A DNA stretch of 62,174 nucleotides, counting the filler, from Hausera hauseri (taxonomy: Eukaryota), in the NCBI GenBank assembly GCA_046269625.1. It is 11 parts of 11 records of this genome, joined end to end, with 100 filler letters (N's around TTAATTAATTAA, not from the genome) between each part and the next. Parts side by side here need not be neighbours in the genome. Positions count along the whole stretch, not along the records: positions 35,753 to 44,209 come from JBJURY010635441.1; 10 more parts are not named here. One strand, 5' to 3'. This document shows positions 9,465 through 59,699 of this stretch, in pieces. The notes under the pieces were generated by a model. That model did no database searches and was not told the DNA's origin. It worked only from the letters and a program-made list of their open reading frames with translations. Numbering within the stretch: position 1 is the stretch's first letter; the number at the start of each line of letters is the position of its first letter. The translations under genes and the position numbers were made by a program.

Positions 9465-9608
9465 GGAACATCGACAATACGCAACACAGTGATAATTAAT
9501 TTAACGAAATAACTGGACAATCATATGATAATTTATACAAAATATTTACTAACTACTTAAATAAATATCAGTAGTAAATAAACTGTAATTTTTACGAATG
9601 CCGATTTT

Positions 9609-24137: not shown

Positions 24138-25696
24138 CAACTCATAAGCNNNNNNNNNNNNNNNNNNNNNNNNNNNNNNNNNNNNNNNNNNNNTTAATTA
24201 ATTAANNNNNNNNNNNNNNNNNNNNNNNNNNNNNNNNNNNNNNNNNNNNTGGTGACATGAAGTCTTTGACCATCTCCCAACTGTAGGAACTTGAAAAGAA
24301 ATATGGTGTAGATAGACATGAGAACTCGTTAAACAACATGGAGATGAAACTGTTAGCGACCGCAGATATACTGAAAATGAAATTGGGGCACCTATGGACT
24401 TACTCCATGTTCAGCGACGTTAACCTGGCAACTGACCAGTAATTGCATTTATTTATAAACTGACAAGGTATCAGGTAAAGTGGTGCAGAGTTAGGGTAAT
24501 TCTGAGGCATTTGATTTACTAGGATGGAATATTCCCTCTAATTTTTTTTCATGCATGTGTGCATCAGCCATGTTCCTGGACAGAAGTTTTTGACAAATGC
24601 AAAGATCAAATGTCTGAGCACTTCTGTTCTGTGTAAGTTTGTAATGGGCATGCACCTTGGATGAAATTGATTTCAATCCCCTGGATGAAATAAGGCCTAT
24701 CTAATTTTTCTGTTGTGTAGTATCTTTTGTGTTGCATCACATCCATTCAGTCTGTTGAGTTCTGCATCTGTATATTTATCTTGTGGTATTAATATAAAAC
24801 AGAACTTTCAAAATCCTAGCGACATAAATGGTGTCATTTGGTATATAGTAACGAAAGTGCACAAGTTATGTCAAGATTTTCTTCGAAAAGTTTGTTTTGT
24901 GCAGTATTATTTACTGAGATGATTTTCAATTGCCTTTTGTTTCTAAACGCTGATATAGTTCTATAATTTCCCCATTAACGTTGGATACAGCTTTGCAATT
25001 CATATTCTGGGGTAAATGAAGGTGAGTAAATTCATTGAGAGGTTTGTTCCTGTGTTNNNNNNNNNNCCTAAATCAGTGCATCCCCCACATCCTTGCTGCT
25101 TAGCTCCAAGAGAAGACTGAAGAAATTGGCAGGAACGCAGACCCCCAGAGGACTGTTTTGTATGTTCTAAGCACTAACAGGACGAACGCTAAATCAGCTG
25201 TACCAAAATTAGCATTACTTGTAAAACTGCAGTGAAAATATATGCTTGTGAATCACAGATGCACTGTAGCCAATCTCAGCAGGTCTCATTCTGAAACACA
25301 TGTTAAACATAGTATTTATACCAATATAAACCTAAAATTAGCCAAAATTGAAACTGTGAAGTCTGTTCTTGATTGTAATAAACACACAGTATCTACAAAT
25401 TTTAATTCATTTTCATATTTTATAAAAGTTAAGTCGTTTCATTGGAACACTTTCAGCAATTTTATGTTAATGCAAACAAATCAAATATCAACAAATGAAA
25501 ATTTTCCTGAGTGGTTTCAAATCCCAGCATTAATTATTGCCCCGCATACTATTGGATGGATACTATTGCTTCTTACAGTAATTGGTGGAGCCAGAATATT
25601 CGGAAAGGTAAGTGAATGGATACTAGTAGAGTTCTCAGGATTTTTCCAAAAAGCGGGTTTACATAATAGTTATGTGAATGTTATTTCGTAATAATA

Positions 25697-26988
25697 CAGC
25701 TATGGCCAAATGTCTGGTAACTGTCAATAAAATGCATCTAATATCAAACATGGAAATAATAGCAATAATACAAACGTCAACTCAATTTTTTTGCTGTGCG
25801 GGTGTAAAAATACTTTGTGTTCTTTATTTACCAGCCTTAACCAATCAAAATTCCGTCAATTCTGACAGAGATTTCTTACATTATGCTTGTTAGTCTGTTA
25901 ACCTGCTATGGAGCTGTCTACTAGTTTAAGAAGCCAAGTCGTTGTGTTACATCAATCTGGTATGCTGCAAGTGCGTGTGGCTTAAATGCTTGGTCTCACT
26001 AAGCTTGTGGTATCATCTACACTGAAGAGGCACCGTGAAACGTGTGATGTTGCAATGCGGCCAAGGAGTGGCCGACCACATGTTACTACACCAACGACGG
26101 ACCGCATTATTCGACGCCGAAGCATTATCAACCCAACCACACCATCAAGGAAATTTGCTGCTGAATTCCAAGTCAGTTCTTATACCATTACACGCCGTCT
26201 ACATGACGAATTTTGACTGAAAAGTTATCGACCAGCAAACAAACCGATGCTCAGCGCCAAAAATATTCGCGATCGTCTTGCATTCTGCATGCTCACAGAC
26301 ACTGGACACCACAAATGTGGGAAACTGTGTTGTTCAGTGATAAGACGCAAATGTTACAGTTTGCTAACGATGGCCGGACATGGGTTAGATGTCCCGTTAG
26401 TGAGTGCTATGATGCTAAATACGTTGTTCCCACGGTAAAGCATTCTGCCAGTGTTATTATCTGGGGTAGTATTTTTGCTTCTGGTGGAGGTAATCTTTAT
26501 TTTCTACCAAAGAACACGACCATGAAAGCCACAAACTATTTCGAAATTCTTCAGGAGTATTTGCGGCCCATGATGACTTGTCGTAATGCTATTATCTTCA
26601 TGCACGACGGAGCTACGTGTCACAAAGCCAAGATGGTGAAAAAGTGGCTTGCGGATTCTGGGGTTGAAATATTGCCTCCGTGGCCTGGAATTTTTCCGGA
26701 CCTCAACCTCATTGAGAATCTGTGGCGCATTTTGGAAGTTAAAGTTGCTGCCCATCCAAGTAGCTTACAACATCTAATCGAAGTGATAAGAAAAGTATGG
26801 TGCAAGGAAGTGTCCATGGAAGTATGCCTAAAGTTGGTGCATGGCATGCCTAACAGAATCAACGAAGTAATAAAAAGGTTCATTTGTCATTTGCATGATC
26901 ACTGTTATATTGGTATGTTTGATATTAAATGCAATTTTTCATAAAATGCCTATTTTTTCACAAGTTACAAGACTTTTGGCCATAATTG
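25697..26988 (+). mobile_element. Full-length Tc1-like transposon (DD34E) with frameshifted transposase
   Basis: TIRs CAGCTATGGCCAAATGTCTGGTAACT and AGTTACAAGACTTTTGGCCATAATTG are flanked by TA. Motifs RSGRP, VLFSD, FMHDGA and PDLNLIENLW. Confidence 0.93.
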
Positions 26989-26999
26989 TATTAACTTTC

Positions 27000-28681
27000 C
27001 AGCACATTTGGTAATTGTCTCAATAAGTCACAACCTAATACTACATCGTTGGTTAATTGTTCCATTATTGCAAATTCGTAATGGAAGGATTGTCCCATAA
27101 TGTGAACTTCTGGATTCCATTTAAACATCGGTCTTGACATTTGTCCAACGGCTCCCATACTTCCGGGATCTTTTGTTGATAGCGGGTGCAGATGTCCTCA
27201 TAACGTTTGCGGAATTGAATCATTTTTGATATACGACGTTTCAGAACCCCTGTCGATTAGGGCGTAAACTTCCCAGTCTTCAGTAGTATCTTTGACAAAG
27301 GGCCTTCTTTCTATTACTGTTCCATAACAATTCGATGCGACTTTGGGTTGCTTAATCGTCGATATTTTATGGCCGCTGCTTCTAATATCTGGGGAATTAA
27401 TTACACTTTCGGTTAGCTGTTTCAATTCTCCATTTGGGTATAGTTCGCTGTTTGCGACGTTCATATCCTCTGCTTCATGGCTACTGATTAGTGGTTGTCG
27501 ATTATTAGCATGTGATTCTAGATTTCGAAACGTTTGCATTCTTTGAGATTTCCCGAGACTGTTGATCTGGTTTCTATATTTCCAGGTACTCTTGGAGAAT
27601 ATAATATTTTGTGATCATCCACTGACTGTCGGCGACAAGGTGCAGAGTTTTCTCTATACTCGTGCATTTTCCGTAAAACTCCATATTGTTTTGTTGCTTC
27701 ATAAGGGTCTTCAAAACTATATGGTCTTGTATAGATTTCTGTTCGATAGGATCTCATCAATTGTTTGTCACAATCTTCATAGATCGGCGCTGTTGGAGGC
27801 AGCACAGGTGGTGGTGACTTTACGACAGAATACGTTTTATGCCTATTTACTTTGGAGACGGCTACTTCTCCCTTAGGCTCGTCATCATTCGAATCGTTCC
27901 GCATTTTGGGTTGAGGAATTTTCGTCCATATAAGAATGTCTTCGTCTTCGATTATGATAGCCAACATGTCGTTTTCTACCCGTTTTCCTCGTAGGCCTTC
28001 ATAAATTTGCCGAATGGCGTTATAATTGCAGTTAAAATGTTACATGAGAATCTCGTCAACGTAGATAATTTGTATCCATTGGATTAGGGCTTTGATTAAT
28101 TATACTAAGAAATAGATCGCTAAAAATCCAGATGCGGCCTGTCCAAAAATGAAAAATCTTCCACAAATTTTGTATAGTATTTCGGTGTTACTCTGATAAT
28201 GGTCTGCACCAAGTAACGATTCCCATTAGATAGCGAGTATCATCTACCACTGCAAATATGGCCCAATTTAATTCGTGTGTACGTTGGCGCGGAAAAGTGA
28301 GAAACTGTCTAAAAGCTTCAACTTTTGTCTATAAATATCCTTCGTTTAGGCGTCCCGAAATTTGTCATCTGTTATTCCTTTTACGAGATTGGTTCCTGTT
28401 AGATTGTTGGTTGCGGCAGTTATGTATTTGCTTGGTAGGCTTACCCAATATGTTTGGCTACATCTGAACATTGGTTCTCCTAAGCTCGCTTTATATTCTT
28501 CTAAAATTGTTAGCTGAGTTGAGTTAGCTAACAGAAATCTAAGAAGACATAATAATTGTAATAATCGTGGTTTATTCTGGTATAAGACGGGTTCTTGTAT
28601 ACAACGTTTTTCTTCGACATTAATTTGTACATTTTTTCTCACATTCATAGGTTAACAGAACGTCGCCTGTGACTCGGCCAA
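27000..28681 (-). mobile_element. Fragment of the env-before-pol Gypsy family: glycoprotein C-terminus, PTAP linker, protease
   Basis: GRVTGDVLL, RCIQEPVLYQN, GIYRQK and FFIFGQAASGFLAIYFL, then PPTAP, then DWEVYALIDRGSETSYI. Colinear with 58800-60420. Confidence 0.88.
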
Positions 28682-28781
28682 NNNNNNNNNNNNNNNNNNN
28701 NNNNNNNNNNNNNNNNNNNNNNNNNTTAATTAATTAANNNNNNNNNNNNNNNNNNNNNNNNNNNNNNNNNNNNNNNNNNNN

Positions 28782-30121
28782 CCCAACAGTCGACTAATGA
28801 AATGGGCTATGTTGCTCCAACCGTATGACCTTAAGTTTGAATATAAAACGGGGAAAGCTAATGCAAATGCAGACTACATGTCCAGAATACCTGAAGACAT
28901 AGATCAAGAGGAAGAAATAACGGATAAACCAGGCGTTATAGCAGCCATTTGGAGTATTACAAAAGAAAAATCACTGTTACAAAAACAGCAAAATGACAAA
29001 CAGATAAAACAAATCAAAAAATTTCTACAAAAGAAAATGATATCCTGAGATACTAACCTTCATGTACATTTAGAAAAATTTGTTGAAAATTATGAAATAA
29101 AGAATAGTATTATGTACTACAACCACAAAGGAAAACTAGTTGTAGTTGTCCCACAAGACAAAGTTATTATTAATCCAGTATCACAACAGGGTGCTGGAAG
29201 GACATCAGCGATAAAGAACGTTAGGCAGATTAAAAAGAAAATCTTGGTACATGCCGAAGGATGCTCAGGAATGGTGTAAAAGCTGTCCAATCTGTACCAC
29301 AAGGAAGAATACAGTTTCAAAAATCAAAGTCCATCTCAAACCATTAGAATGGCCACCGGCTTCAATGGAATTTTCAGCAATGGACATTCTAGGACTATTA
29401 CCTATGACAGTAAATGGAAACAAATATGTTAGTGTTTGTAGACTTGTTATCCAGATGGCCAGTTGTAATTCCAATATCAGACCAGAAAGCTCAAACTATT
29501 GCTCAGGCATTTGTAGAAGAAATCATATTTAATTACGGAGCACTCTAAATTATTAACAGATCAAGCTCAAAATTTTACAGAAGTTATGGTAGAAAACTCA
29601 AAAATATTTCGGATATTACAGTTGAAAACAACTACCTATCATCCACAAACTAATGGAACAGTAGAAAGATTTAACGGAATTTTAACCAATATGTTGGATA
29701 CGATGGTTATTGAACGACAATATGATTGGGACGAATTCATAAAGCCTTGTCTATTTCAATCAGAAACACGATTCATCCTGCGACAAAAGAAACCTTATAT
29801 ACCAGTTGATTTAGGCGTCAAAAACACCGGTCTCATATTTAAATGATATGGAATACAAAAAATTGCTGGAAGAGAAACCGGGTTATGTATGGAATTTGGC
29901 AGCAAGACACATAAAGATCTGTCAAAAAGAATATAAAACTAGATATTATGAAAAACCCAAACTGCATAACTTCAAACCTGAAGACAAGATTATGTTGCAT
30001 ACGCCTCTGGGTAAGAAATGAAAACTCCAGAACTGGACAGACCAAACAAAGGTCCTTATATGATCCAAAAAGTAAATGAGATTAATATCTACTTAAATAA
30101 AAATAAAAAAATAAAATCGAC
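28782..30121 (+). mobile_element. Degenerate Ty3/Gypsy pol 3' part (end of RNase H, integrase)
   Basis: Motifs RLMKWAMLLQPYD..YKTGKANANADYMSR, WCKSCPIC, MDILGLLP, TDQ, YHPQTNGTVERFN and GPY at 30051. Several stops and frameshifts. Confidence 0.9.
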
Positions 30122-30202
30122 CCCATAAAAGTCCATGCAAATAGATGTAAGCCAGCACCAACGGATTCTAGGATCAGAAATGAAAACCTCGGTCTATTAC
30201 TA

Positions 30203-33145
30203 TTGACAACATTTGTAATATTAACTTTAGTGACCAGTATATCAGCCCAACCCTTGGATGTAAATTACAAAGCCGTACAAGTTGGAAAATACCCTTGCAT
30301 AAAAATTACGGCTAATCGAAATTTAACGACAGACGAATATATACATATATTCATATCGAAATTACCCGTAGTAGAGAAAGCAACACCAGAGAACTGTGAT
30401 TTGTATTATAATCATTCAATACACGTTTGTTGTGGACTCTCATTCGGAGAAACTTATAGGATCCAATACGCAATTGGAAAAAGTGATCACAGCTACAGAA
30501 CATATTTTTCATTTCCTGGCACTACCCATTATTTCCATCGACCTTATTTTCTTATTTCATTTTACACTAAGGTCATGAAAAATGGACCTTGTGTAACAGC
30601 GGAGCCCGATGTTTCAAACACGAGGTATGTTACATTTAAATACATAATATTTGATGGTATAAATAGCATTCACTGTAAACCAACTTATCAAAACCCGTAT
30701 ATATGTTGCCCTATTGTTTTCGATAAAGAGTATACAATATATTATTGGACAACGTATAATGTTTATACATGGTCAAAAACTTCGGATGGTCCAGAGATAA
30801 TAATACGACCTCCAGCCAAGAAAATTACAACTTCAACAAAGAAAACAACTACTTTGATAATACCATCCAGTATAGTAGCTAGTCTAATAATGGAACTCAA
30901 GAAAGTTGTTAAGGAATTAGATACAATTATCCAACCAACAACTCACTCATTAATTATTACAGTAACAGACTTAAAAACTACGAACGTAAAATTCGAATGT
31001 TATTTTAATCATAAAGTAGTCAGCGAAAGAGTGTTAACTCCGGATGAACCAACATCAGCCTGTGCGTCCTTAGAGGCCGATACTAATTATCAGATTATTA
31101 TAACAGAGCTAGACAAAGACGGACAAGTCCTACAAGTTTTCAAAAAGAAAGAGAAAACGTTGAAATTACCTATGATCGTTACAGAAAGAGTTACAAAAAT
31201 AACTACTATACAAATTCAAGAAGAAACTCCTAATAAATACCTTTGGATAATTAGTATATTATGTACTCTTCTAATATTACTAGTCATACTGTTACCCCTA
31301 ACGATATACTGTTTAAAAGTGAGACAGCGAAGACGTAAAATAAGAAAAATAATAAATCAGTTAAAACTTTTAAGAGAAGATTCTCAAAATATGTTAACAG
31401 GGAAAATAAGTGCACCCAAAGATGAAACTCCACGTACTCCCGAACGGCTAATTTGTCCGTCAATCCAAAAGCCATCGGTTAAAAAGCCGACTAATCCAAA
31501 ATGGCAAGATTGCCCATTAAGTCTCCCTAATGAAAACAATCAAACAAGTAAACGACAAGTTTGTCGATCAATAGACACGACCGTGTGTTACTGTACAAAG
31601 ATACAGAATGAAGTTACTAAATTTTTTGCGATCTACAAAAGCTATAAATTAAAAAAGAATACCTTTATTTCCATCTCTAAATCGTCTTGGTTAATATTTG
31701 TTTATTTCCTTTTAGTTCAAGAAGGATCCGAACTTGTGGACAGAACCAAATCTTTTTATTATAATATCATCAGCAATTTGAATGAAACTGACAACAAAGA
31801 TTATGTCTATTATGGTAAGGCAAACCTAATACCCAACAACTTAAAAGGCCATCTTCTCCATCAAAGATCCGGATTGATAATGAAATTGCCTAATACTTCT
31901 ACAAAACTTTCGGATTTAATTGACATTTCCAGCCAAACCACATCAGTCTTTGTGTCTACAGCAAAAGGCCATCTTCAGATAAAGAGTCGAGCACACCTGA
32001 ATGATTTTACTGACACTTTAGATGTCACGGCCTACACCACGATTCGTTTAGATAAGAAGTTTTATCGAAATGTGACCATCATCTTACGGACGTATGGAGG
32101 CCCATCCCCGATAATATACATCGAAGTTACACGAAGAGAGGTCCTCCCTCAGATCGAATATGAAAAACCGATATACCCTTCCAATCTACCTAATCGTGAC
32201 CAGCTCACAACTGGAATATCCTTTTCCAGATTACCGCTGAAATCAAAGGATCAGATAGTAATATTAGCGACAAATTTCGCTTTCCTCCTAACCCCTTTAC
32301 GTAATAAAGAAACAACTCTCGTGGAACTAACCATTATGGATATTGAAGGGGATATCATTTTGGACGAACTCGTTACTCCGCGAGACCGGATAGATAACTA
32401 CAACAGTCTGATTACTGGATTAAAAGAAGTGAATTTAATCGGACAGATAGATGCCTATCAAGTTAGATCATTCATTAGAAAAGAACTCAATGGAAAGATG
32501 ATAATTGGAATCGATATTTACAACACCAACTTACATCTCGATCTTTTTGATACTAACGCAATATTAGGAATTAGGGATCTTTTATATCATCCGGAAATAA
32601 ATCCCGATAAAGCATTGACCCATAAGCAAGTTTTAATGAAATTTAATAACATCGTATATCCTCAACGTACCAAGGAGAAGGCTGCAACAATATTAAAAAT
32701 ATACAATTCTATCGAAGAATATAAAATTGAGGAAGGAAATTTCCAGAAATTACCCATTCAATTTCAATCAAATCAATCAGAATCATCCGTAAATGAAATC
32801 TTATTAGATAATAAACAATTTATGACTCTGGCTTTGACAGATGATTCTAAACCTGAATTGATGGATATTAGTGACACTTTTGAAACATCTACCCTTAACC
32901 AACTAACTACTAACCAATCGCTCTCAACCACTACTTCTAACGAATCCATTACAATCGATCTGACCCAATCACAAAAAAAGAAGAGAACTACCCGTGAAAC
33001 AGTTACTCTTAAGAAAAAGATCCGGAAAGGAAATCAATGGCTGCGGATAGACTCCGACAATTACAGATATACCAATGGCACTCTTGTAACCTATCCGTTG
33101 AAGCTGGGGACAGCTTCGTCTAAGGAGGGAGAAGATGTTCAATAA
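30203..33145 (+). CDS. Intact 980-aa type I membrane protein in the env position: signal peptide, three FN3-like repeats, TM, cytoplasmic REX4/ISG20-like pseudo-exonuclease
   Basis: Hydrophobic N-terminus. FN3-like motifs GLSFGETYRIQY, IVFDKEYTIYY and LEADTNYQIIIT, with a Thr-rich linker. TM at about 31238-31316 followed by RQRRRK. DEDDh-like pattern at about 32250-32715 lacking the ExoI D/E. The frame is open upstream to the integrase motif VHANRCKP. The ORF ends over the PPT/LTR junction. Confidence 0.8.
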   Translation: MTTFVILTLVTSISAQPLDVNYKAVQVGKYPCIKITANRNLTTDEYIHIFISKLPVVEKATPENCDLYYNHSIHVCCGLSFGETYRIQYAIGKSDHSYRTYFSFPGTTHYFHRPYFLISFYTKVMKNGPCVTAEPDVSNTRYVTFKYIIFDGINSIHCKPTYQNPYICCPIVFDKEYTIYYWTTYNVYTWSKTSDGPEIIIRPPAKKITTSTKKTTTLIIPSSIVASLIMELKKVVKELDTIIQPTTHSLIITVTDLKTTNVKFECYFNHKVVSERVLTPDEPTSACASLEADTNYQIIITELDKDGQVLQVFKKKEKTLKLPMIVTERVTKITTIQIQEETPNKYLWIISILCTLLILLVILLPLTIYCLKVRQRRRKIRKIINQLKLLREDSQNMLTGKISAPKDETPRTPERLICPSIQKPSVKKPTNPKWQDCPLSLPNENNQTSKRQVCRSIDTTVCYCTKIQNEVTKFFAIYKSYKLKKNTFISISKSSWLIFVYFLLVQEGSELVDRTKSFYYNIISNLNETDNKDYVYYGKANLIPNNLKGHLLHQRSGLIMKLPNTSTKLSDLIDISSQTTSVFVSTAKGHLQIKSRAHLNDFTDTLDVTAYTTIRLDKKFYRNVTIILRTYGGPSPIIYIEVTRREVLPQIEYEKPIYPSNLPNRDQLTTGISFSRLPLKSKDQIVILATNFAFLLTPLRNKETTLVELTIMDIEGDIILDELVTPRDRIDNYNSLITGLKEVNLIGQIDAYQVRSFIRKELNGKMIIGIDIYNTNLHLDLFDTNAILGIRDLLYHPEINPDKALTHKQVLMKFNNIVYPQRTKEKAATILKIYNSIEEYKIEEGNFQKLPIQFQSNQSESSVNEILLDNKQFMTLALTDDSKPELMDISDTFETSTLNQLTTNQSLSTTTSNESITIDLTQSQKKKRTTRETVTLKKKIRKGNQWLRIDSDNYRYTNGTLVTYPLKLGTASSKEGEDVQ

Positions 33146-34087
33146 TCGGCCTGAATTGGTAAATAATCCAATGAAATACAAAATAAACAATTGAATTTTG
33201 AATGTCAGTGATTTTTATTTGTATTTCATTTAAATTAAATGGATTTTTATTTTCCTGTTATTTTACATAATGAAATGTAAATTTTTCTTGTGATTATATT
33301 TGTATTAGTTGGGTATAAATATCGTAATTTTTATGACTGAAACATAATGCAATTTTCTGGTGACAACGAACGACAATTCGTACCTACCTTTATGATGATT
33401 TACTACAATACTTGTAAGCTTTTTCTTTAATTTTTGTACATTTTTTGGTTATAGATTGTAAATTATATATTTTTAATACATATTAACCTTGATTTTAGTT
33501 CCGTTGTAAAGTATAATATTTAGTAGTAAGGATTAATTAATATTAAAATATTAACCCGTTTTGGTATTCCGGCCCTGTAATCTGCCGGATGTATAAATTC
33601 TAATAAGTAAGGGGTAAACCGTCAGTGTTCCTCCTGAACGGTCCTCACACTAAGGTCAAATAAAACTTGAAGGCAACCCCACAGGTTGCTCCTAAGAATA
33701 ATTAATTTCTGGTCTAGGGGGAAGGAGAAACCCCAGACTATATTTAGTCCTAAGTAAAGAGTATAAGTTTAAGGTCGTAAGACTAATAAATCTTAGACTA
33801 TAAACTTATCAACTAGCTACCGTATTTATATAGCTGATGACAACAATTTTCTGGAAGAGAATTTTTCGTTTAATTCTGTTCGAATTTGTATCAATTAATT
33901 CTTATTTGCCAGATTATTTAACCAATTCTCCACAAATGGCCATGCAATTTTAGTATATTTTCTGTGCAATAAATTTTTAAAGATTTCGATTATAATCCAA
34001 CTTAATTCGGTTTCGATTTCGTATTTAGAATTCTTTCGTTTTCGGTTATTTACATTTGTACATACTTCTTTGTGAACTTTTATAACA
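33136..34087. repeat. Probable LTR sequence (TGTT...AACA) with an inward-facing polypurine tract on each side
   Basis: On the + strand, PPT AAGGAGGGAGAAGA (33122-33135) is followed by TGTT. On the - strand, PPT AGGGAAGAAAAA (34088-34099) is followed by TGTTAT. Contains a TATA box, poly(A) signals and a hairpin cluster. Confidence 0.55.
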
Positions 34088-34099
34088 TTTTTCTTCCCT

Positions 34100-35470
34100 G
34101 AACGGCACTCTCGGATGTGCTCATTGCGTCAGAGGAGGTGCCGCTCAGTCGGTTCATTCTTCTACGTAAGTCCGTTTCCAAATCCGATTAGTCTCTTGGC
34201 GATTGTAAGTCAAAGTTGTAGGATGTAGTGGGTTTTTGGGGCAATATTTCTACTACCTCTTTATTTTCTCCACTGACATAGTACTTCAGTCTGGTAGCTT
34301 CGGCTGTACATACAGGACAAATCGTTTTCCCCTTTTTCAGTGTTCACGTTTCTGAACAGTATCTACAGTACTTGTGAGTACAGTCTTTATTGTCCAATAC
34401 CACGAATTCTTGGTAGAGATTAGCGTCGCAAACTGGGCATTCTTCCTTTTCATCTCCATCTATGTCTACGAGGTTTTCATCAACTTCTATTTATTCGAAT
34501 ACTAGTCCTTTTTTATCTTGATATAAGTATCCATATAAGCGTTTTTGTTTAGGGTCTATAGAACTTTTTTAGGGTCGTCTGATACTGTGACCAAAGTCCA
34601 CTCGACTACCTCTTGTTTATCTAAATCAGGTATTCCAGTTTTCTTGTATTGCCTTTTTAGTTGAATTCGAACTTGAGTATCCACAGGAATTGTCAATCGG
34701 TTAGTACCGTTCATTGATTGGAATATCGGGGTTAGATATCTGCCAACAGTGGTATATTCTCTTGTGTATCCGTTTCCACTTACTATTCTCCTGGGAACGG
34801 TGGATATATGGAATATCGCTTCCTTAATTTTACCCTTGCTATAATATTCGGTCATGACAAGCATTCAGTGGTATTCTTTTACTTGACCAAATTCCGTGAC
34901 TATGATTGGGACATCTTCTTCCCAATTCTTCCAAAGGACGTTTACTTCTGTCTTGAGGGAATTGGATTTAATAGTTTTCCATTGGCCTTCGTTGTTTTCT
35001 TTCGTTTCTTAACTGATCGGTATTTCGGTCTGATCGTCTATCCGTTCATTTGGTGTGGGTCTGTTTGATGCTGATTTGATTTCTTTCGTTTTCTCTTACT
35101 GGTTTTGCTTCCTTTTTGCTAATATATTCTAGGAAGAAGGTTTTTGTCTTTGTCCTCTCGAATTTTCATCTTGAGCTCTACTGGTTAACGGTTTTTGTCT
35201 ACTGTTTGATGTTTCTGCTGAACTATTGTGTATAGTTTCTCGAAATCGATTATATTTTTGAGGTTTGATTTGCCTATAAACTCTTTTTGGAATTTTTATA
35301 TCAAGACTTTCGGATTGTTGTCGGATATCACATTCTATACGGGACTTCTAGGTTTCTACTCATGTTCCCGTCGTAATGAGGCATAGATGTCTTTTAGAAA
35401 CCTTGTTCTTTGACTTGCTGACATCCGTTTAGGAAATTTGAATTCTCCGCCATTCATGGCCTCTAACATA
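34100..35470 (-). pseudogene. 3' part of a second accessory-ORF copy: exonuclease tail, basic region, conserved domain, RING finger
   Basis: MLVMTEYYSKGKIKEAIF...EWTLVTVSDDPKK..YGYLYQD matches MLVMAEYCSHQKIKEAVF...DWTLVSVNYDPRK..HGYLYQD at 14431-15041. RING: CPVC...CTHKYCRYC...CPVC. Confidence 0.8.
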
Positions 35471-35576
35471 ATCTTAAATTGTGATTCACGCGACGCTGAC
35501 GGAAGCAGACACCCTCTTTTCCTCATTATATTATTTTCAACTTGACTTACAACTGCTGGATTCAGACCCAGTTCAC

Positions 35577-35652
35577 GGATGGCATGCCATTATTGTTGAC
35601 GGACATGACGTACGGCAACTCATTGCAGCATTTGAAGAGGCAGCCAATCACA
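35577..35652 (+). pseudogene. TKT: Transketolase fragment at the contig end
   Basis: GWHAIIVDGHDVRQLIAAF matches the animal transketolase motif GWHAIIVDGH. Only about 25 codons are visible. Confidence 0.6.
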
Positions 35653-36383
35653 NNNNNNNNNNNNNNNNNNNNNNNNNNNNNNNNNNNNNNNNNNNNTTAA
35701 TTAATTAANNNNNNNNNNNNNNNNNNNNNNNNNNNNNNNNNNNNNNNNNNNNGTAATTGTTATATTAATAAATATTTTATACAGACTTCTTTGTCTTCTG
35801 TTTTGTCTTAGTGTAAATTATTTTGTTGTGACAATGACATTAACTTTACATTACAAAAGGGTGGGAATAGTGAAACCACGACTGCCCCAAAATTAAAACA
35901 AAAGTGGGGTGGTAATAGTGAAATCCAACAGCGGCCAGAAAATGCTTTGTTCACAACCAAAATTTAAACAAAAAAATTTCTTGGCGCGAAATTCAAATTT
36001 TTAAGTCCGCCTACAATCCTGGCAGTACGCTTGCTTCTGTGTTTCACTTTCATATTAGGATCGATTGATTATTGACAATATTGAATTGATTGATTATTGA
36101 CAATATTGACCCATTGATTAACATTGTGTTAGGATCGATTGATTATTGACAATGCTGAATTGATTAGTTGTTGACGATATTTACCCCTTTCTTGTATATA
36201 TATTGTCGAGCCTCTATGATAGGCGTTTTTACTATACTGTCAATTGTAAAGTTACTTGTGAACCCTACCTTACAATTGCAACCACCATAAAATATAATTA
36301 GTTTGAAAATTTAAATTATTTATTTTGCTTCGTTTTGCCAATTTTAAAAAAGAAAAAATCATTTCACAAATCGTCAATGAATC

Positions 36384-36526
36384 ATTGAATTTTAATTTTT
36401 GAAAAGTCCATGAACTTAATTGTATGAATCACTGGTTTTTCAAAATCAACAGATTGAATTTTAATTTTTGAAAAGTCCATGAACTTAATTGTATGCATCA
36501 CCGGTTTTTCAAAATCAACAGATTGA
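36384..36526. repeat. 69-bp tandem duplication. Other local duplications at about 36056-36180, 36822-36877, 42072-42116 and 42193-42355
   Basis: Direct repeats are visible in the sequence. Confidence 0.85.
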
Positions 36527-39011
36527 GCTTCAAATTCAGAATTGACGTCATTAGTATGAACCTTGAATTTAAAATTGACGTCACTAGCATGGACTTCGAA
36601 TTTGAAAATAAAAATTATAAACAAACCCACACATAAATAGTCGAGGCATTCACGAACAAAAACACACACAAAATTCTACTATCAAACCTAAAGATTTTAT
36701 TATTAGTTGACGTACCAAATTTCCAGGAGAACTTGTAGGTAAGTTCCTCATATTTTATGACTGAAACATATAAATTTAAGAAATACTAAGGCGACAAAGA
36801 CTAGCACAGAGAATTATTTGAAGAAATTGTATATCCGACTATTGACGAAAGAAATTGTATATCCGACTATTGACGAATAATCCTAATAAATTCTACATTG
36901 AGCTTACCTTTGACGATTTGAACAATAAATTGATAAATGGCTGAAGCAAATTCTTTTGATAATGGTGAGTTGTCAATTGTTTTATTTTATTATGTTACCG
37001 ATGTAAAGTATTGTGTTAAAATACAATTTTGATATATTAAATATTTGCGGAATACAAAGATGGATATGGATCGTGAAAGAGTATACGAAAACAAAGACAT
37101 GAACCGCTGTGGAACTTCGAAGCTGGAGTGGTAAAGCAAAACAACGTTAATCAGTGTGTCTAGCAAAACAACTATGGATGTCAAAATGGCTAAATTCGTG
37201 ATATATGTGATACCCTACGTAACGATAGATTATGACAGGAGCACCGATACACCAGAGCATTGAATATAATCGATGATGGATTCACCTGAGAGCTCTACAG
37301 AGAACCTGAACCGGAGACCGAATATACTAAGGAATCATAATTCTCCGAGGACGAGTATAGAGGTCACAAGTACGCCGGATATTCTCTCAGTTCGATAGAC
37401 AAACGGAGTTGTAAAATAATTGTGGTATTAGTAAATTGTTGGTATAGCTGGGGATGGGAGTGTGAAGGTAGCGTGTTGGTACCCCGTCTTGATGATTATT
37501 GAATGGAATTATTAATTCATATAAAATTGATGAACATTTCCTATAATTGTATGTCTTATGATTTAATGATATTTACCTTAATAAGAGTTGAATAATAGCG
37601 TGTTGAAAGTGTTAATGGCGGGTTTATATATATTAATATTGTTCCTAGCGACGTTAATGGTATCTATGTAATAATTCCGGGTAGTATATGTTAGATGGTA
37701 CCATAGTTATTATGATAGTTAACAGAAATTTGGAATTTTTACGAGAATAAAAATAAAAATAATGAGTTATTATGTTCTATGGGGTTACTAGGTTAAAGTA
37801 TTGTAACGGAGAATATCATAGTACAAATAATGAGTATAATGGATGCGAGTCCCTTTCATATAGATAATATTATAATTTTGCATCAGATGATGATAAGGTT
37901 ATGATTTGTGAAAAAGAATATTTGCCAGTAATCGTGACGGAGGCATAACATATGACCATACGGTACCTACTAATCTATAAACTAACGTAATTGTGTAAGG
38001 ATGAATATATCTTGAGATTGTATAAAATAAAGTACGTCTATTCAATTCGATGTAGAATCATAAAAAGTTTATGCCTAAATATACGTCAGAATATAAAACG
38101 AATGTACGATGAACCATGAGATGAAATGTTCGTTTAGACAATAGAAGCTTGCAAAATACCGGTTAACTACCTTTCGTATATTTCGATATGATATGTAGTA
38201 CTTAGGTGATAGAATAAATGTGTGACGATAGTAATAATAACAAACCTATTTCAGTGATTAGTAACTATCCACATAATACAAAGGATTTAAAGGAGATAAA
38301 ATATTACTTTTAGGTTAGATGGCTGTATTTTTCGACTAGAGGCAATTTGTTTCTCATTCATTCAATTTAACGAAAAATCTGAAATTTTTATTATCGATAT
38401 TTTATCTTATTGTATTGCATCTATTCTTATGTATTAGTGTGTTTTCTATTCACCCAACAGTAAACCCAATAGTTTTAGTTGATGAATGAAAGTGAGTTCG
38501 ATTTGGGAATTCTATAAAGGAATGGATCTCCGTTATTGACGTGAAGTGTAAGTTCTTGAAGAGTGTAAAGGATTGTCTATTGTCAAAAGTCTTCACGTCC
38601 TTTTGTCTGTAACACCTAACACTCTATAATTGTTGTAATGTGGTTAGAGAATCTTCAAATCCCATTTTGATAATAATTGACGAACGTGAAAAAATCAACT
38701 TTGAGGAAGTATGATATACAAGGAACATGATACCCCCACAACCTAGATTATTGAGACTCTCTATATATCGACATGAATCGAGAGTATAGGAGGGACGCTA
38801 TATCGATAATAGAAGAAATTTGAATATCGAACTTTTGGATAATAGATCGGCATGCGGATATCTATCCCTAGTCAGAATTAAAAGTGTACTATACTATTCT
38901 TGAAAATAACATGTTTAACTCTTTTGATGATATGGAAAGAGGAAAATTGATATATATATATATACATATAATAGGTAGACATAATCGCGGGAACCCAGAA
39001 AGCTGTTTGTA

Positions 39012-39036
39012 ATGCCCTTGGTAAATAAAGGCGCAG
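39012..39036 (+). CDS. Putative leader exon, unit 1 (MPLVNKGA + G, phase-1 donor CAG|GTATTT)
   Basis: ATG at 39012. The donor context AAAGGCGCAG|GTATTT is conserved in unit 2. A TA-rich tract lies at about 38950. Confidence 0.5.
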
Positions 39037-39092
39037 GTATTTTATATACCGAACCGCCATCGGACTTCCCCTTCAGATTCAAATAAAATTTA

Positions 39093-39181
39093 TTTATATG
39101 TTACTATGAAACCTTATGGAACCTCAAAATGTCCCAATATTTCAACTACCTTGAATTCGGTACAAAATAGTAACATATAAA
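39093..39181. repeat. Perfect 15-bp inverted repeat around a 59-nt loop (unit 1), LTR-end-like TGTTACTAT...ATAGTAACA
   Basis: TTTATATGTTACTAT (39093-39107) and ATAGTAACATATAAA (39167-39181). Confidence 0.9.
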
Positions 39182-39182
39182 C

Positions 39183-39200
39183 TGGTGCCCCGAGTGAGGA
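39183..39200 (+). promoter_or_regulatory. tRNA primer-binding site, elongator tRNA-Met-like (unit 1)
   Basis: TGGTGCCCCGAGTGAGGA differs by one base from the complement of the animal elongator tRNA-Met 3' end as recalled (TGGTGCCCCGTGTGAGGA). It lies 7 nt after ...TAACA. Confidence 0.75.
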
Positions 39201-39281
39201 CACCTTTGGACTATAAGAAAAAATTGCGATTAAAATAATAATCGATAATTTTAGGAGAAATTTTATTTATTTGAAATTCAG

Positions 39282-39592
39282 ATAGCAAATACGGACCAGT
39301 AAAGTGCGAAATCTGTTTCGGATTACTGGGACGACATTATGCACTTTTTCGGTGCACGCACATAATGTGCGTTAAATGTGCAGATCGCTGGCTATCGAAG
39401 AGCCAGACGTGTCCCTTTTGCCGGAGGAAGATAAGTTCCTACCAGTGTCGAGGAGCCACAGTAGTGGTCATCCCAGACGATAAAGAAGACGAAGAAGGAA
39501 ATGAAATAGAGGAGGACGATAATGCAGTACCAGAGGACCAGCATGACCTATACGTATATGGACCCAATGGACTTGTGTACATGGCAATATAG
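39282..39592 (+). CDS. RING-finger (C3HC4) exon A1 with acidic tail
   Basis: CEIC...CTHIMCVKC...CPFCRR. Acceptor TTCAG in phase 1. AATAAA at 39596. Confidence 0.8.
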
Positions 39593-39765
39593 TGAAATAA
39601 AATATTTTTGGCCTTGATGAAGAATAATAATAGATTATGGGCGGCCCAACGGGATTGATAATGGTTGATAAAGAGATAATAACTTGATTGTAGTAGTAAT
39701 AGTAGTATGAAGTCTATCTTAGAGAAGAATAAATTAAAGAATTAAATGAATTACATTGATTTCAG

Positions 39766-40001
39766 GTTGTGCTATCTGCAAGAAATTTTCGGAAACTCGG
39801 GACGAAGAGGAGATTCTCTGCCCCCTATGTTATTTGGTAGAAAGATTGAAACAATCAGAAGATTCATTTGAGTGTGGACATTGCAAGGAGGAAACTAATT
39901 TGGGCTTAATGACCATGGACAAAGACTGTTTCTTACTATGTCCTATTTGTGCCCTATCATGGAATGACCTGGAAGAAATTGATAAATTGACTAATTTGTG
40001 A
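39766..40001 (+). CDS. Zinc-finger exon B1 (four CxxC)
   Basis: CAIC, CPLC, CGHC and CPIC. Acceptor TTTCAG in phase 1. Frame conserved in unit 2. Confidence 0.72.
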
Positions 40002-40196
40002 AATATGTAACAAGAGTAAATTGATTATAGTACTTCGCGAAATTTGGTTTTGCACCCCATATGTGCCCTGATAGGTGGAATTGCGGATTTGTGAGTGATC
40101 ATAATATGATAAGTTTTAATAAATAGAAGTCGTTTTATTAGAAGAATTTATTATTATTAGCAAATGAATACTTGGAATAAACTATTACCATTTAAG

Positions 40197-40648
40197 GAAA
40201 CGGATACAGAAATGGAAGTGAAAACAGAATGGAACCCGAAAAATGTCCCATCTGCCTTGAGGAAATGATGGAGGAAAGAACCACACTCCCATGTAAACAT
40301 AGCTACTGCAGTCCCTGCATTAACATTTGGTTGGGGGAGCACAGCAATTGTCCTTGTTGCCGAAGAGATTGTACCTTCTGTTGGGTATGTTCCAAATTAG
40401 TAGCCGAGGACTTGGCCACCCTATCGTGCAGACATGTATTTTGTCAGTCGTGTATCCTCGAATATTTAGCGTGCTGCCAATTGTGCCCCTACTGCTTAGA
40501 AACAGTGGATTTTTATATCACAGAGGGGGTGATTACCTATTTGAATTTTAATGGACAATCCTCTATAATGCTAGTGATTGACGAAGATGATGGCAGTTGG
40601 CCAGAAGCGTGGAGAAATCCACAACCATATATATTAGACATAAACTAA
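40197..40648 (+). CDS. Tandem double-RING exon C1
   Basis: CPIC...CKHSYCSPC...CPCCRR, then CWVC...CRHVFCQSC...CPYC. Acceptor TTTAAG in phase 1. AATAAA at 40661. Confidence 0.85.
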
Positions 40649-40706: not shown

Positions 40707-40930
40707 GTTATTTCCCCGACTTGAATTCGGTGCCTGTTTTATCACACGGATTCCAACAGAAAGTAGATCACCATTATTCCGTTTATAATCCAAATGGAAC
40801 TTTCACCACAATAGGGAAGGAATGCACCATTTGCCTCAGCAATTATTCCACCAAGCCAGTGGAGTTAATCTCATGCAAGCACCAGTTTTGTCGCTGCTGC
40901 ATAAGGGAGTGGTTCTCCAAAAATAGGTAA
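40707..40930 (+). CDS. RING exon D1 (last CxxC missing; possibly spliced at AG|GTAAAA, or truncated)
   Basis: CTIC...CKHQFCRCCIREW. Acceptor TTTAAG in phase 1. Confidence 0.65.
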
Positions 40931-42440
40931 AAGTCTTTTATTAGTTTATTTGTTGTATTATCATTTTATCTTGGTTGACTTGTACATTTTGTATTATTGA
41001 ATAAATCTTTAAAATTTAAATTTATACAACGACGATAAAAGAGATCGTAGGAAAGAAGGAGGAGCTGTTCAGTAGAATGCCAAGAAATGAATTGGAGAAT
41101 CAGACGGTCATGTTTTGGCAAAGCAATTAATGATTAATTGTTGTGGTCAAAGGAAAACTTTGAGACGCTCGATTATGGACAATTCTTCTTCTCGTTCAAG
41201 GTATGTGGTGTTAGAAAAAGCGTGATTAACAGGATGAAATCCTTCCCTTCGAAAAGCATAAAAGAAGACCTGAGTCTGTGTCTATTATATCTGCGACTTC
41301 GGTTTCATATCGGAACGATAGTGGCCATCGAATTGCGTCAGATAATCTAATTATGTCGAGGAATTGGGATATCTTGAATGGTCATTAATTTTATCAGAAG
41401 TTCGAGAGTTATTATATAAATATATGATTGTCATGTGGAATGTGGTGGGCGAATCTAAATATTTTAGATTAATAATTGTAAATTTTATGATCCGAAAACA
41501 TAAAATAGACGTGATAATTCATTGCTGTACGTCATAGGAGATTATTGTTTAAAATTCTTGTTTGTAATGTCATCGTTGTTAGATGTTACTGCGGAGTTGT
41601 GTTATATTGTTGTGTATAGGGTGCATCCTTAGGTTGTGATGGATCAAAATGAGTAACTTATGAGAAGGAGACATTCCTCGAAAGGTATGTAAATAGTCTG
41701 ACGTGGCGATCAGCAATGATTAAAGTCACGATGGGCCTTACAGAATGATTACAGTACTGTATTGTTACACAATCAATAAATTGAATTTTATTAATGTAAA
41801 ATGCAAAGGGTATTAAAGGCACGATGACTCAACACAAGACGAATAACCATAGACATGAATAACTGAACGATATGAAGAAAAGAGAAAGCACAATAATAAG
41901 AAATAAAAATATCCAAAATCCCAAAGCCAATAACGTTATATCACTATACTAGCCGTTAGAGTTCTCGTGCTTGAAATATGATGACCATAGTGATCAGGAC
42001 TATTAAAAGGGCTTTATTCAAGATGTTTAAATAATTGTGAATATTCGGAGAACGGCCACGTTAAAATTTCATTCTTAGCACGGTTTACGACCACATTCTT
42101 AACACGGTTTACGACCAGGAAAGATAAAAGTTGAATATTCTGGATATAACCCGACGAGTGAATGTATGTACTTGGCTAGGTTTGAAATATGTAAACATAC
42201 ATTATTCTGAAATTACTGCATATTTGATTTCTTTTAAAATACAGAAACATATAAACATACATTATTCTGGAAGTACTGCATATTTGATTTCTTTTAAAAT
42301 ACAGAAACGTAAAAATATACGTTATTCTGAAACTTGCGTATTTGATTTGTTTTAAATCCCGAGATGAGGAGGTTTAGTACGCATGTATGTACACGGGCAT
42401 GTATAATCATGAAGACACGTCGCTATTAGTTATACTTCTG

Positions 42441-42456
42441 ATGATCAAAGGCGCAG
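42441..42456 (+). CDS. Putative leader exon, unit 2 (MIKGA + G, phase-1 donor; frame open back to 42387)
   Basis: ATGATCAAAGGCGCAG|GTATTT, the same donor context as unit 1. Confidence 0.5.
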
Positions 42457-42510
42457 GTATTTTACATACCAAACCGCCCTTGAACTCCCCTTTAGATATA
42501 ATGATGAACA

Positions 42511-42605
42511 TTTATATGTTACTATACCAAGGAGGAATACACATAACATATAATCACCGATCGATACTAATCACTGATGCAATACACGAAATAGTAACAT
42601 ATAAA
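42511..42605. repeat. The same 15-bp inverted repeat around an unrelated 65-nt loop (unit 2)
   Basis: TTTATATGTTACTAT (42511-42525) and ATAGTAACATATAAA (42591-42605). Confidence 0.9.
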
Positions 42606-42606
42606 C

Positions 42607-42624
42607 TGGTGCCCCGAGTGAGGA
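42607..42624 (+). promoter_or_regulatory. tRNA primer-binding site, elongator tRNA-Met-like (unit 2)
   Basis: TGGTGCCCCGAGTGAGGA is identical to unit 1, while the sequence downstream of it diverges. Confidence 0.75.
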
Positions 42625-42761: not shown

Positions 42762-43057
42762 GAGATCGAAATGGAACAACACCCTGTGACATATGTTTCG
42801 GACCCCTCGGAAGAAGATATGCCTTATTGAGATGCACTCACATAATGTGCACTCATTGCGCAGACAAATGGTTGATGAAGAAGCAGTCATGCCCGTTTTG
42901 CAGGCGAAAAACCACATCCTATCAGTGTTGGGGAACCACTGTGGTGGTGATCCCGGACGAAGAAGAAAGTGAAACAGAGGACGAGGATGCAATACCAGAA
43001 GATCAGCATGATCTGTACGTATTTGGACCTAATGGAATTGTATACATGCCAATTTAA
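42762..43057 (+). CDS. RING-finger exon A2
   Basis: CDIC...CTHIMCTHC...CPFCRR, paralog of A1. Acceptor TTTTAG in phase 1. AATAAA at 43061. Confidence 0.8.
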
Positions 43058-43234
43058 TGCAATAAAACATTCATTTTTGGCCTTGATAAGAAATAATAAT
43101 AGAGCATAGGCGGTCTAATGGAATCAGTAATAGCCGATAGGAAACAATAAATTGATTATAGTAGCAATAGAAGCGTGAAGTATATCTTAGAAAAGAATAA
43201 ATTAAAGAATTAAATGAATTAACATTGATTTTAG

Positions 43235-43470
43235 GATGCGTCATATGCGGAAAACCGCCCGAGGTTAACAATGAAAGAAAAAACTCATGTGCATTATGTT
43301 ACCTCGTCGAAAGGATGAAGCATCGGGAAGATCTGTTTGAGTGCGCATACTGTGGGGAGGAGGCCAATATAAGTATTATGATCATGGACTCAAACTGTTT
43401 TCTGGTATGTCCTATCTGCTCCCTATCGTGGAATGACTTGGAAGAGATTGACAAATTGACTAATTTGTGA
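43235..43470 (+). CDS. Zinc-finger exon B2
   Basis: CVIC, CALC, CAYC and CPIC, paralog of B1. Phase-1 acceptor. Confidence 0.72.
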
Positions 43471-43671
43471 AATATGTAATGAAAGTAAATTGATTATTGT
43501 ACTTCGCGAAATTTGGTTTTGCATCCCATATGTGCCCTGACAGGCATAATCGCGGATTTGTAAATGATCATAATATGATAAGTTTTAACAAATAGAAGTC
43601 GTTTTATTAGAATTTATTATTATTAGTAAATGAATATGGAAAATATTTAAAATAAACTATTACCATTTAAG

Positions 43672-44132
43672 GACACGGACACAGAAATGGAAGTGAAAAC
43701 AGAATGGAACCCGAAAAATGTCCCATCTGCCTTGAAGAAATAATGGAGGAAAGAACCACACTCCCATGCAGGCATAGCTACTGCAGTTCCTGTATTAACA
43801 TCTTGTTGGGGGAACACAACAATTGCCCCTGTTGCAGAAGAGATTGTACATTCTGTTGGGTATGCTCCAAACTAGTAGCCGAAGACTTGGCCACCCTATC
43901 GTGTAGACATGTATTTTGTCGGTCATGTATTCTCGAATATCTGGCGTGTTGTCAAATGTGCCCTTATTGCCTGGAAACAGTAGACTTCTACGTCATGGAA
44001 GGAATTATTACATACTTGAATGTTGACAACCGCCCATCCATAATGCTAATGATTGATGAGGACGACGGCAGTTGGCCAGAGGCATGGAGAAACCCGCAGC
44101 CCTATGCAATATTAGACATAGATTGGAATTAA
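43672..44132 (+). CDS. Tandem double-RING exon C2 (exon D2 begins at 44187 and is cut by the contig end)
   Basis: Paralog of C1 with many synonymous differences. Phase-1 acceptor and AATAAA after the stop. Confidence 0.85.
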
Positions 44133-44309
44133 ATTATTATTAATAAAAATTAATTGTTGTAAATTGTTTATTTTTATTATATTAAGGTTATTTTCCCGAT
44201 TTGAACTCTNNNNNNNNNNNNNNNNNNNNNNNNNNNNNNNNNNNNNNNNNNNNTTAATTAATTAANNNNNNNNNNNNNNNNNNNNNNNNNNNNNNNNNNN
44301 NNNNNNNNN

Positions 44310-58700: not shown

Positions 58701-59680
58701 CTTTATTTGGTCTAATTTCTATTAACTTCCCTGTTTGCAAGTCAATCGCTATGTTGGGCAATCTTTTTAGCAGGTCACATCCTAGTACTACGTCATCAGT
58801 AAATTGCTCCATAACTGCAAATTTGTGATGGAAAAACTGTCCAACTATTTGAACTTCTGGGTTTCATTTAAACATTGGTTTTGACATTTGATCAAAAGCT
58901 CCTGTACTTTCTGGATCCTTCGTAGACGGTGGGTATAACTGTCCTCTCAGTGTTTGAGGTATTGAATCATTTTTGATATATGACATCTCCGAACCTGTGT
59001 CAATTAAGGCGTAAACTTCCCAATCCTTAATAATGATTTTGGCGAAGGGTCTTCCTTCTATTACCGTTTCGAAACAATTTGATATATTCTTTGAACGTTT
59101 TACCGCCAATATTTTGTGCCCATTGATTCGGATTTCGGGGGAGGATACAACTGTCTTAATTCTTCGTTCGGATATAACCCGTTGTTTTCTATGTTCAATT
59201 CTTCCGCTTCATGCGTACTAATTAATGATTCTCGATTGTTACTGTGTAATTCAGTATTCTGGAAGGTTTTTAGCCTTGAATTATCCCAAACCGTCGATCT
59301 AGTTTCTATATTCTTAGGTTCTCTTCGCGAGTACAACATCCTGGGATCCTCTGTGGATTGTCGGTAGCACATTTTCCGTAGAATTCCGTAGCGTTTTGTT
59401 CTCTCATAAGTATCCTCTACATTAAATGTTCTCTTATAGATTTCCGTCTGATATGAACTCATGGTTCGTTTATCACAGTCTTCATAAAAGGAGCGGTAGG
59501 AAGTAACATGGGTAATGGCGTTTTAACGACAGAGTACATCTTATGTCTATTTATTCCTGAAAGTACTTCTCCTCCCTTAGGTTCGTCATCATCTAAATTA
59601 TTTCTTCGTATAATAGGTTTTGTAAATTTTCTCTTCCGTAGGAATATGGTTTCCTTTCCGTTTACGATTATAGCCGACAT
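55760..59680 (-). mobile_element. Degenerate Ty3/Gypsy pol: PTAP linker, protease, RT, RNase H, integrase
   Basis: Motifs ALIDTGS, RFCIDYRALN, VMPFG, YLDD, KTDAS, YSVTELETLA, DALSR, the HHCC region, MDIVGPL and YHPQCNGMVER. Confidence 0.95.
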
Positions 59681-59699
59681 GGCGTTCTACGTCCGATTT

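Follow-up and report, generated by a model that had tools for sequence, protein, structure and literature searches.

Pairing of the primer tRNA beyond the primer binding site (PBS) is well studied in retroviruses and in yeast Ty elements, and RSV has a U5-IR stem. In HIV-1 an 18-nt PBS lies in a segment with a primer activation signal (PAS), a sequence upstream of the PBS that complements the primer's T arm (PMC11181671), and retroviral leaders have a stem-loop just 5' of the PBS which also bears the integrase attachment site; the U5-IR stem of RSV is named in PMC3601003. In Ty1 and Ty3 the primer tRNA is bound by two separate tracts of the element RNA, the second PBS segment of Ty3 lying in U3 (PMC5371799), and Drosophila Gypsy also has two tRNA sites (PMC1635307). 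The major splice donor of foamy viruses is in R of the LTR, upstream of the PBS and within a hairpin (PMC5035957). The planarian giant gypsy element Burro/GYPSM1 has an accessory ORF upstream, carries env between gag and pol, and encodes accessory domains related to ubiquitin and apoptosis, RING among them (PMC6431247). Among non-autonomous LTR elements of animals, the ta-TRIMs of taeniid tapeworms (PMC4558846) and Helenus/Ajax (PMC10886601) have the PBS a few bases from the LTR end, and have PBS and LTR ends in common with a helper. Cargo uptake via template switching is known in animals (PMC5131818).

The locus studied here has features of each of these systems, and differs from each. Compared with the retroviral PAS, its second tRNA-complementary tract, as computed, is about 20 nt long and runs from the T loop into the anticodon arm, the stem is a perfect 15 bp with a free loop of 59-65 nt, and the element is likely gypsy-type, of an invertebrate. 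Ty1, Ty3 and Gypsy are primed by initiator tRNA-Met or tRNA-Lys at a 5' PBS that is short (11 nt in Gypsy), and the second site of Ty3 and Gypsy lies close to the RNA 3' end, whereas here it lies 100 nt upstream of a full 18-nt elongator PBS. Unlike the foamy virus donor, the donor here is predicted to join a short coding exon to alternative RING exons behind the PBS, and there are no foamy-like genes. The domains of Burro are mostly in one polyprotein, while here they are on separate exons, spliced by prediction; the env-PR-RT family on other contigs of the stretch analysed has the env position and env type of Burro. The ta-TRIMs and Helenus/Ajax have two matching LTRs (~198 bp in ta-TRIMs), a polypurine tract (PPT) and target duplications, none of which was found for the 77-83-bp unit at this locus, and they lack long ORFs, whereas the unit here has coding exons under selection. 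The gap from CA to the PBS is 7 nt here and 4 nt in ta-TRIMs.

The stem-loop, its copies and its loop

The window, by which we mean the whole stretch of DNA analysed (62,174 nt), consists of 11 contigs joined with N/stop spacers. The stem-loop and PBS are within the contig at 35753-44209, and their features are collected in Table 1; the other contigs hold gypsy-type pol pieces, a Monjiviricetes fusion-type env before a protease, DNA transposon remnants and host-like gene pieces. Two public runs, neither recorded as RNA, contain the stretch: X1 (0.61 of sampled words) and X2 (0.16).

Table 1. Positions of features of the two units along the window
Feature	Position	Strand	Evidence or remark
Unit 1 predicted first coding exon, ATG to donor, 25 nt, ends in phase 1	39012..39036	+	inferred; nearest open ATG
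Predicted small hairpin with splice donor (GT at 39037)	39030..39058	+	same fold in both units
Second tRNA-Met-complementary, PAS-like tract, unit 1	39060..39079	+	19/20 positions pair (17 Watson-Crick, 2 G-U)
Unit 1 left arm of 15-bp stem	39093..39107	+	exact copies and fold prediction; 4/8 listed X1 contigs end exactly at 39107
Loop 1, 59 nt, likely neutral spacer	39108..39166	+	relatives with 4, 8, 11 and 13 substitutions, no gaps
Unit 1 right arm	39167..39181	+	holds likely LTR end ACA (39173-39175) and 6/7 nt of the gap from LTR end to PBS
18-nt PBS, elongator tRNA-Met, unit 1	39183..39200	+	complementarity ends after 18 nt
RING exon 1, acidic tail, phase-1 acceptor, own stop	39282..39592	+	Pfam zf-C3HC4/RING
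Cys-rich exon 2, four CxxC pairs, phase-1 acceptor	39766..40001	+	no Pfam match; 64% aa identity to unit-2 copy, silent sites saturated
Double-RING exon 3, phase-1 acceptor	40197..40648	+	two RING stretches; dN/dS 0.06
RING exon 4 without last CxxC	40707..40927	+	Pfam match ends at profile position 32/40; likely breakpoint near 40924
Candidate PPT and TGTTCA, possible long-LTR start of unit 2	41049..41071	+	LTR ~1.53 kb to 42599; weak, pattern at 10 window places
Three 58-60-nt tandem repeats upstream of unit-2 exon 1, U3-like	42184..42361	+	depth higher in both X1 and X2
Unit 2 predicted first exon, donor hairpin and tRNA-pairing tract	42441..42499	+	ATG 42441, donor GT 42457 in phase 1, hairpin 42450-42478, tract from 42480
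Unit 2 stem-loop	42511..42605	+	arms 42511-42525 and 42591-42605, loop 65 nt
PBS, unit 2	42607..42624	+	exact copy
Unit 2 cassette	42762..44209	+	exons 42762-43057, 43235-43470, 43672-44132 and first bases of exon 4, cut by contig end

As originally predicted, the left arm (15 of 15 positions) and the right arm, single C and PBS (34 of 34) are identical between the units, and the two loops do not align, shuffled sequences doing as well or better in 1336 of 2000 global and 1733 of 2000 local alignments. Exact copies of the arms and PBS were observed only twice within the window. The stem was also described as invariant; this is true of the two copies in the window, but one loose-end match in X1 (4 contigs) has two substitutions in the left arm. 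In folds of the whole leader, the predicted pair probability is at least 0.88 for 13 of the 15 stem pairs in each unit, and the z-score of the whole hairpin is -2.3 and -2.5 on the + strand. A 15-bp repeat alone is not unique, as the AT-rich window has 12 perfect inverted repeats of at least 12 bp within 200 nt, four of which reach 15 bp; that these arms occur twice, each time one base 5' of an identical PBS, is not a chance event. An AT-rich contig (20091-24149, 29% GC) which ends in a 45-nt tandem repeat also has several nested inverted repeats with 12-18 bp of perfect match. An Rfam covariance-model search gave a single chance-level match (E 2.8) elsewhere in the contig, and ARAGORN found no tRNA gene in the window.

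Complementarity to the tRNA starts from TGG and ends after 18 nt, as would be expected of a primer site and not of a tRNA-derived repeat. Next to the LTR end, TGG precedes 15 nt that match the gene-encoded part of tRNA-Met, the tRNAs compared being those of other eukaryotes and not the host's. Searching metagenome contigs with the PBS complement and a generic T-loop pattern gave 47 loci, at which ARAGORN called tRNA-Met(CAT) in 36, Leu in 4 and SeC in 1; five of the six loci with no call there are Met-type sequences cut or altered at the 5' end. Some tRNA-like loci (L009, L014, L021 and L036) have a Met-type 3' end with a different 5' half, and are tRNA-Leu(taa) according to ARAGORN. The human elongator tRNA-Met printed in PMC8216282 has one mismatch to the PBS, and the initiator printed there does not match. 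The right arm agrees at 6 of 7 positions with the integrase motif YNYAACA (PMC3601003), 7 nt before the PBS, as expected of an LTR end. Together with the 18-nt match to the 3' end of tRNA-Met, this upholds the prediction of an LTR-element end followed by a tRNA-Met PBS. A fuzzy search at up to four mismatches gave no further PBS in the window, and the arm-plus-PBS patterns had no match in viral contigs and none in metagenome contigs.

That more than two copies exist was confirmed in the public runs. In X1, 465 contigs match the 240 nt examined, with several distinct variants, and the family is present in X2 too, so that it is multicopy. In X1 the RING units reach a summed depth of 470-4,050 and most flank bins 24-58, and X2 shows this pattern as well; on a finer scale the depth is 3,500-9,000 over the upstream block, 190-320 over loop 1, 28,000-40,000 over the right arm and PBS, and below 450 beyond 39210, values which are not copy numbers, as overlapping contigs inflate short conserved islands. 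This profile nevertheless shows a family. The high depth starts at ~39170, indicating that the bulk of PBS contigs include the right arm. Arm and PBS are deeper than either the block or the RING exons, which fits a larger family having the same site, without naming that family. Upstream of unit 1, an extremely deep repeat with a duplicated motif and many short-range joints (35753-36034; summed depth 116,708 in X1 and 2,671 in X2) is followed by low-copy DNA with three short tandem repeat sets of 25/74, 69 and ~36 nt (36030-36600).

The loop had been regarded as specially hypervariable, a view which the neighbouring coding DNA does not favour: silent sites of the RING exons are near saturation (pooled dS 1.7), and the loops in the window are as distant as this predicts. 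When loops were simulated at d=1.7, 35-58% of 1000 runs aligned as badly as observed, and at d=1.0 the figure was 3.5-14%. Identity between the units is 0.46 in the loop and 0.47 in the preceding spacer. Eight pieces are listed from the matching X1 contigs; four extend from the block across a gapped spacer and end precisely where the left arm ends, and the other four are the loop-1 relatives of Table 1. For the most diverged of these, depth arithmetic would place all 13 of 13 differences in the 59-nt loop and none in the 50 nt of arms and PBS (Fisher p 0.0002), variants near contig ends being absent from those listed. Transitions make up 13 of the 20 listed loop variants. The best match of a loop elsewhere in the window is 14 nt; the one between loop 1 and a pol gene (19219-19232) cannot be extended and was dismissed as chance. 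The loop is thus likely ordinary neutral sequence between fixed arms, judging from its pattern of substitution, and the exotic claim of a diversity-generating loop becomes unnecessary.

A slower yardstick is given by the non-coding stretches between RING exons (39593-39765, 40002-40196 and their unit-2 counterparts), which are 80-86% identical despite near-saturated silent sites. At the corresponding d=0.2, none of 1000 simulated loops was as diverged as observed; the inter-exon stretches must therefore be constrained, more recently exchanged or otherwise of another history. A form with an 81-nt deletion between RING exons (40081 to 40163) was seen in both X1 and X2.

The upstream block and the RING exons

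A third conserved island, overlooked in the original prediction, lies upstream of the stem: 39027-39073 and 42447-42493 are identical at 40 of 47 positions, and this block contains both a second tRNA-pairing tract and a splice donor. The DNA upstream of the two blocks cannot be aligned between units, which argues that the units are not the two ends of one young element.

The tract lies in the 3' half of the conserved block. In unit 1 it is complementary to tRNA positions 58-49 and 46-37, and in that register 13 of its first 14 positions also pair in unit 2. Against tRNA positions 34-58 the unit-1 tract ranks first of 60,866 windows on both strands, at -22.3 kcal/mol compared to a mean of -7.7, as computed with tRNA of other eukaryotes and not of the host; the unit-2 tract ranks ninth among collapsed window matches. 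Shuffled sequences were as good as the tracts in 50 and 48 of 5000 cases (~1%). When 54 distinct tRNA calls were compared with the tract, two long intron-bearing calls came out on top, followed by Met types; Met types with other anticodon stems were weaker (-15 to -20 kcal/mol), tRNA-Pro was close (-20.9/-21.2), and the portion of the tract that matches the T loop is shared by many tRNAs. Pairing is kept or improved in six of the eight family variants listed for the tract, as against 13 of 60 possible changes (binomial p 0.002, a value partly inflated because G-U-tolerant changes are transitions), and those keeping it include both transversions at the one mismatch. The U-G to C-G changes of the HIV-1 signal (PMC11181671) parallel these variants.

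At the level of sequence, the T arm of the primer tRNA is thus matched by a second tract, as in a PAS or a bipartite site. Closure of the stem would shorten the path between tract and PBS from 103-107 to 12-14 nt. Co-folding did not show the tract paired, the two contacts crossing each other so that both cannot be modelled at once. Read on the minus strand as a Pol III B-box, the tract was rejected, since the T at tRNA position 55 is altered in unit 1 and neither unit has C61 of the B-box consensus. Judged by titles and the beginnings of abstracts, the literature search found no report of a PAS in an animal gypsy element.

The same block is predicted to end a short coding exon. The + strand of the contig has CAG-GTA at two places only, one in each unit; counted from the nearest ATG, the donor is in phase 1 in both units, at 25 and 16 nt. 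Downstream, the top-scoring acceptor is in phase 1 for seven of seven zinc-finger exons, compared to 31 among all 78 AGs; the scoring of acceptors was fixed with the sites already known, and the seven exons represent four independent types (~0.4^4 = 0.03). For the first RING exon of unit 1 the top acceptor runs into a stop, and the second, also in phase 1, is open. Exons 1-3 have their own stops followed by AT-rich polyA-like signals; a 19-nt motif led by AATAAA is common to 12694, 40118 and 43587. From the donor and acceptor phases and the exons' own stops it follows that the stem and PBS likely lie in an intron, with the exons as likely alternative last exons. A spliced-leader RNA was considered and rejected, as the acceptors are all in one phase and the exon lacks the terminal ATG of flatworm spliced leaders.

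The cassette had been named for its RING exons, a description which is correct for exons 1, 3 and 4 and fails for the Cys-rich exon 2, which has no Pfam RING match. Between units, dS of the three full exons is 1.8, saturated and 1.0, and dN is 0.23, 0.25 and 0.06; pooled, dN is 0.15 at the dS of 1.7 given above, and a dN/dS of ~0.09 indicates purifying selection. The double RING of exon 3 has one homologue (P0001, 45% identical), no longer fused form of it was found among 131 candidates, which is weak evidence, and no homologue candidates were found for the RING of exon 1. Look-alikes of the RINGs in the atlas are generic RINGs, mostly from large DNA viruses, and serve as a lead only; the single-sequence fold of the double RING (pLDDT 36) is unusable. 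That these proteins may have E3 activity is suggested by membership of the RING family alone.

Element boundaries and alternative readings

Both units are cut ~1.6-1.7 kb after the PBS, unit 2 by the contig end and unit 1 at a likely breakpoint near 40924, and the absence of gag and pol after the PBS is therefore uninformative. An X1 contig matches 40924-42243 without a difference, while its first 179 letters do not match there; the join of unit 1 to unit 2 may be a recombination or an assembly chimera. A physical link of the RING cassette to pol was not found in the window, where both units are cut in this way, and neither was a matched LTR pair or a target duplication, both units being incomplete. 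The PBS of the env-before-pol family is not in the window, its env-pol contigs being without 5' ends.

As to a long LTR, the TGTTCA of the candidate start in unit 2 also follows a purine tract at 33122-33141, where a long ORF ends. Candidate LTR heads at 33110, 41040, 13672 and 35840 were tried and rejected, as they do not align beyond the first bases. The long ORF (30107-33145, +) is intact over 1012 codons and comes right after an integrase remnant, with no Pfam or usable atlas match; its stop overlaps the purine tract, and the TGTTCA that follows is the likely start of a 3' LTR. Elsewhere in the window, two broken gypsy-type copies (55615-62174 and 24250-28681, both -) have a Monjiviricetes-type fusion gene upstream of protease and RT, and related broken reading frames of 42-48% identity are found on two retroelement contigs (14389-15074 and 34389-34951, both -), opposite to pol of one. 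At 8378-13672 there is a purine tract with TG at 13668 (minus strand), then host-like gene pieces (NAD(P)H-hydrate dehydratase, TMEM17 and a P-type ATPase).

Three options had been offered for the stem-loop, and of these a U5 hairpin is the best fit. An ultra-short LTR of about 80 bp is disfavoured, and we regard it as unlikely even in its most developed form, in which a cargo element arrayed in tandem would have a 77-83-bp LTR (TGT...ACA), the 3' end of the preceding unit would be formed by the upstream block, the tract would link the two ends of the RNA in the manner of Ty3, and transcription would continue from one unit into the next. The integrase motif is matched at both ends, with a symmetric 6-nt outer extension as at unprocessed cDNA ends, the two units stand in tandem, and a second tRNA site near the 3' end is known from Ty3 and Drosophila Gypsy. 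The tests for a PPT and a twin LTR failed, however: no purine tract directly precedes either left arm, the 25 nt before both TGT being AT-rich and not polypurine, and there is no near-identical twin, since the two loops are unrelated and neither has a second copy in the window. Moreover, block, arm, loop and PBS are linked in the same X1 contigs, so that loop-1 relatives have the upstream spacer and the PBS together, and the tandem join is itself doubtful. In place of the short non-coding interior of a TRIM there are at least 1.7 kb with exons at the dN/dS given above; an LTR of 77-83 bp would put the first exon outside the element, and in a lone element the RING exons would lack a first exon despite purifying selection.

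In a second alternative, which we hold to be quite improbable, a long LTR would give a genomic RNA starting inside the loop. In that case tract and left arm would belong to U3, at the 3' end of the RNA, and would pair with the tRNA and with the right arm at the 5' end, circularising the RNA for strand transfer, and the RING mRNA would come from a second, upstream start. The sequence constraints are equal to those of the U5 reading, the second PBS segment of Ty3 is in U3, and unit 1 has AATAAA at 39082; unit 2, however, has no AATAAA there, the loops are without a common initiator or polyA motif, and two promoters would be required.

We give no more credence to domestication, in which an old LTR end would now be promoter and first exon of a host family of tandem RING genes that has lost retrotransposition. 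Intact frames, splice signals, purifying selection and tandem copies are all consistent with it, but an intronic PBS with 18 of 18 nt matching the tRNA, together with 49 of 49 identical arm and PBS sites at silent-site saturation, would be hard to keep without reverse transcription, and arm plus PBS are far deeper than the RING exons.

Capture of a small insert, the last of the three options, is very improbable: in its fuller form (a miniature solo LTR or MITE in a palindromic AT target, TATA-TGT...ACA-TATA marking a 4-bp target duplication, with loops acquired independently) it would account for the identical 4 nt outside TGT and ACA on both sides and for the sharp end of conservation at 39107 in four contigs, but TATA is self-complementary, so that any perfect stem looks alike, no empty site is found among the joints listed (the sole joint keeps AACA), the rise in depth at ~39170 leaves most PBS contigs with the right arm, the loop-1 relatives form a graded, gap-free series that aligns as ordinary diverged sequence in the independent run X1, and no match of a loop elsewhere in the window is longer than 14 nt.

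A predicted leader within an intron

The reading we favour is that the stem-loop and PBS are probably the R/U5 end of a long 5' LTR with its priming site, in a multicopy family of gypsy type, and that they likely serve as a retrovirus-like scaffold, inside an intron, for reverse transcription primed by the tRNA. The RNA would start upstream of the first exon, and tRNA-Met would be gripped by both tracts, as with the retroviral primer activation signal, the stem acting as a spacer. The right arm would be kept fixed by integrase recognition as well as by pairing and the left arm by pairing, the PBS would be re-copied from the tRNA in each cycle, and the loop would be free to drift. Unspliced RNA would retain the module of stem and PBS and be copied. 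If the LTR donor were instead spliced to one of the four phase-1 exons, each an alternative last exon, the module would be removed and the RNA would encode small RING/zinc-finger proteins, which would likely be ubiquitin ligases acting on host factors.

A wider proposal is possible, and is put forward far more tentatively. It is that a gypsy lineage of invertebrates, or else a satellite of its enveloped members that has no gag or pol, may have a leader of retroviral grade, in which a split 38-nt grip on elongator tRNA-Met is folded around the integrase end and placed within an intron, with a splice switch between the genome and four selected RING/zinc-finger effectors that would retune host ubiquitination. 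Judged by titles and the beginnings of abstracts, no match was found in the literature for an LTR-internal donor selecting RING exons. The many diverged copies of the family are natural variants in which primer pairing can be tested, and the first variants fit. A donor inside the LTR that takes out the priming module and chooses among RING exons would give a transposon a compact switch between genome and mRNA, and a supply of selected E3-like accessory genes.
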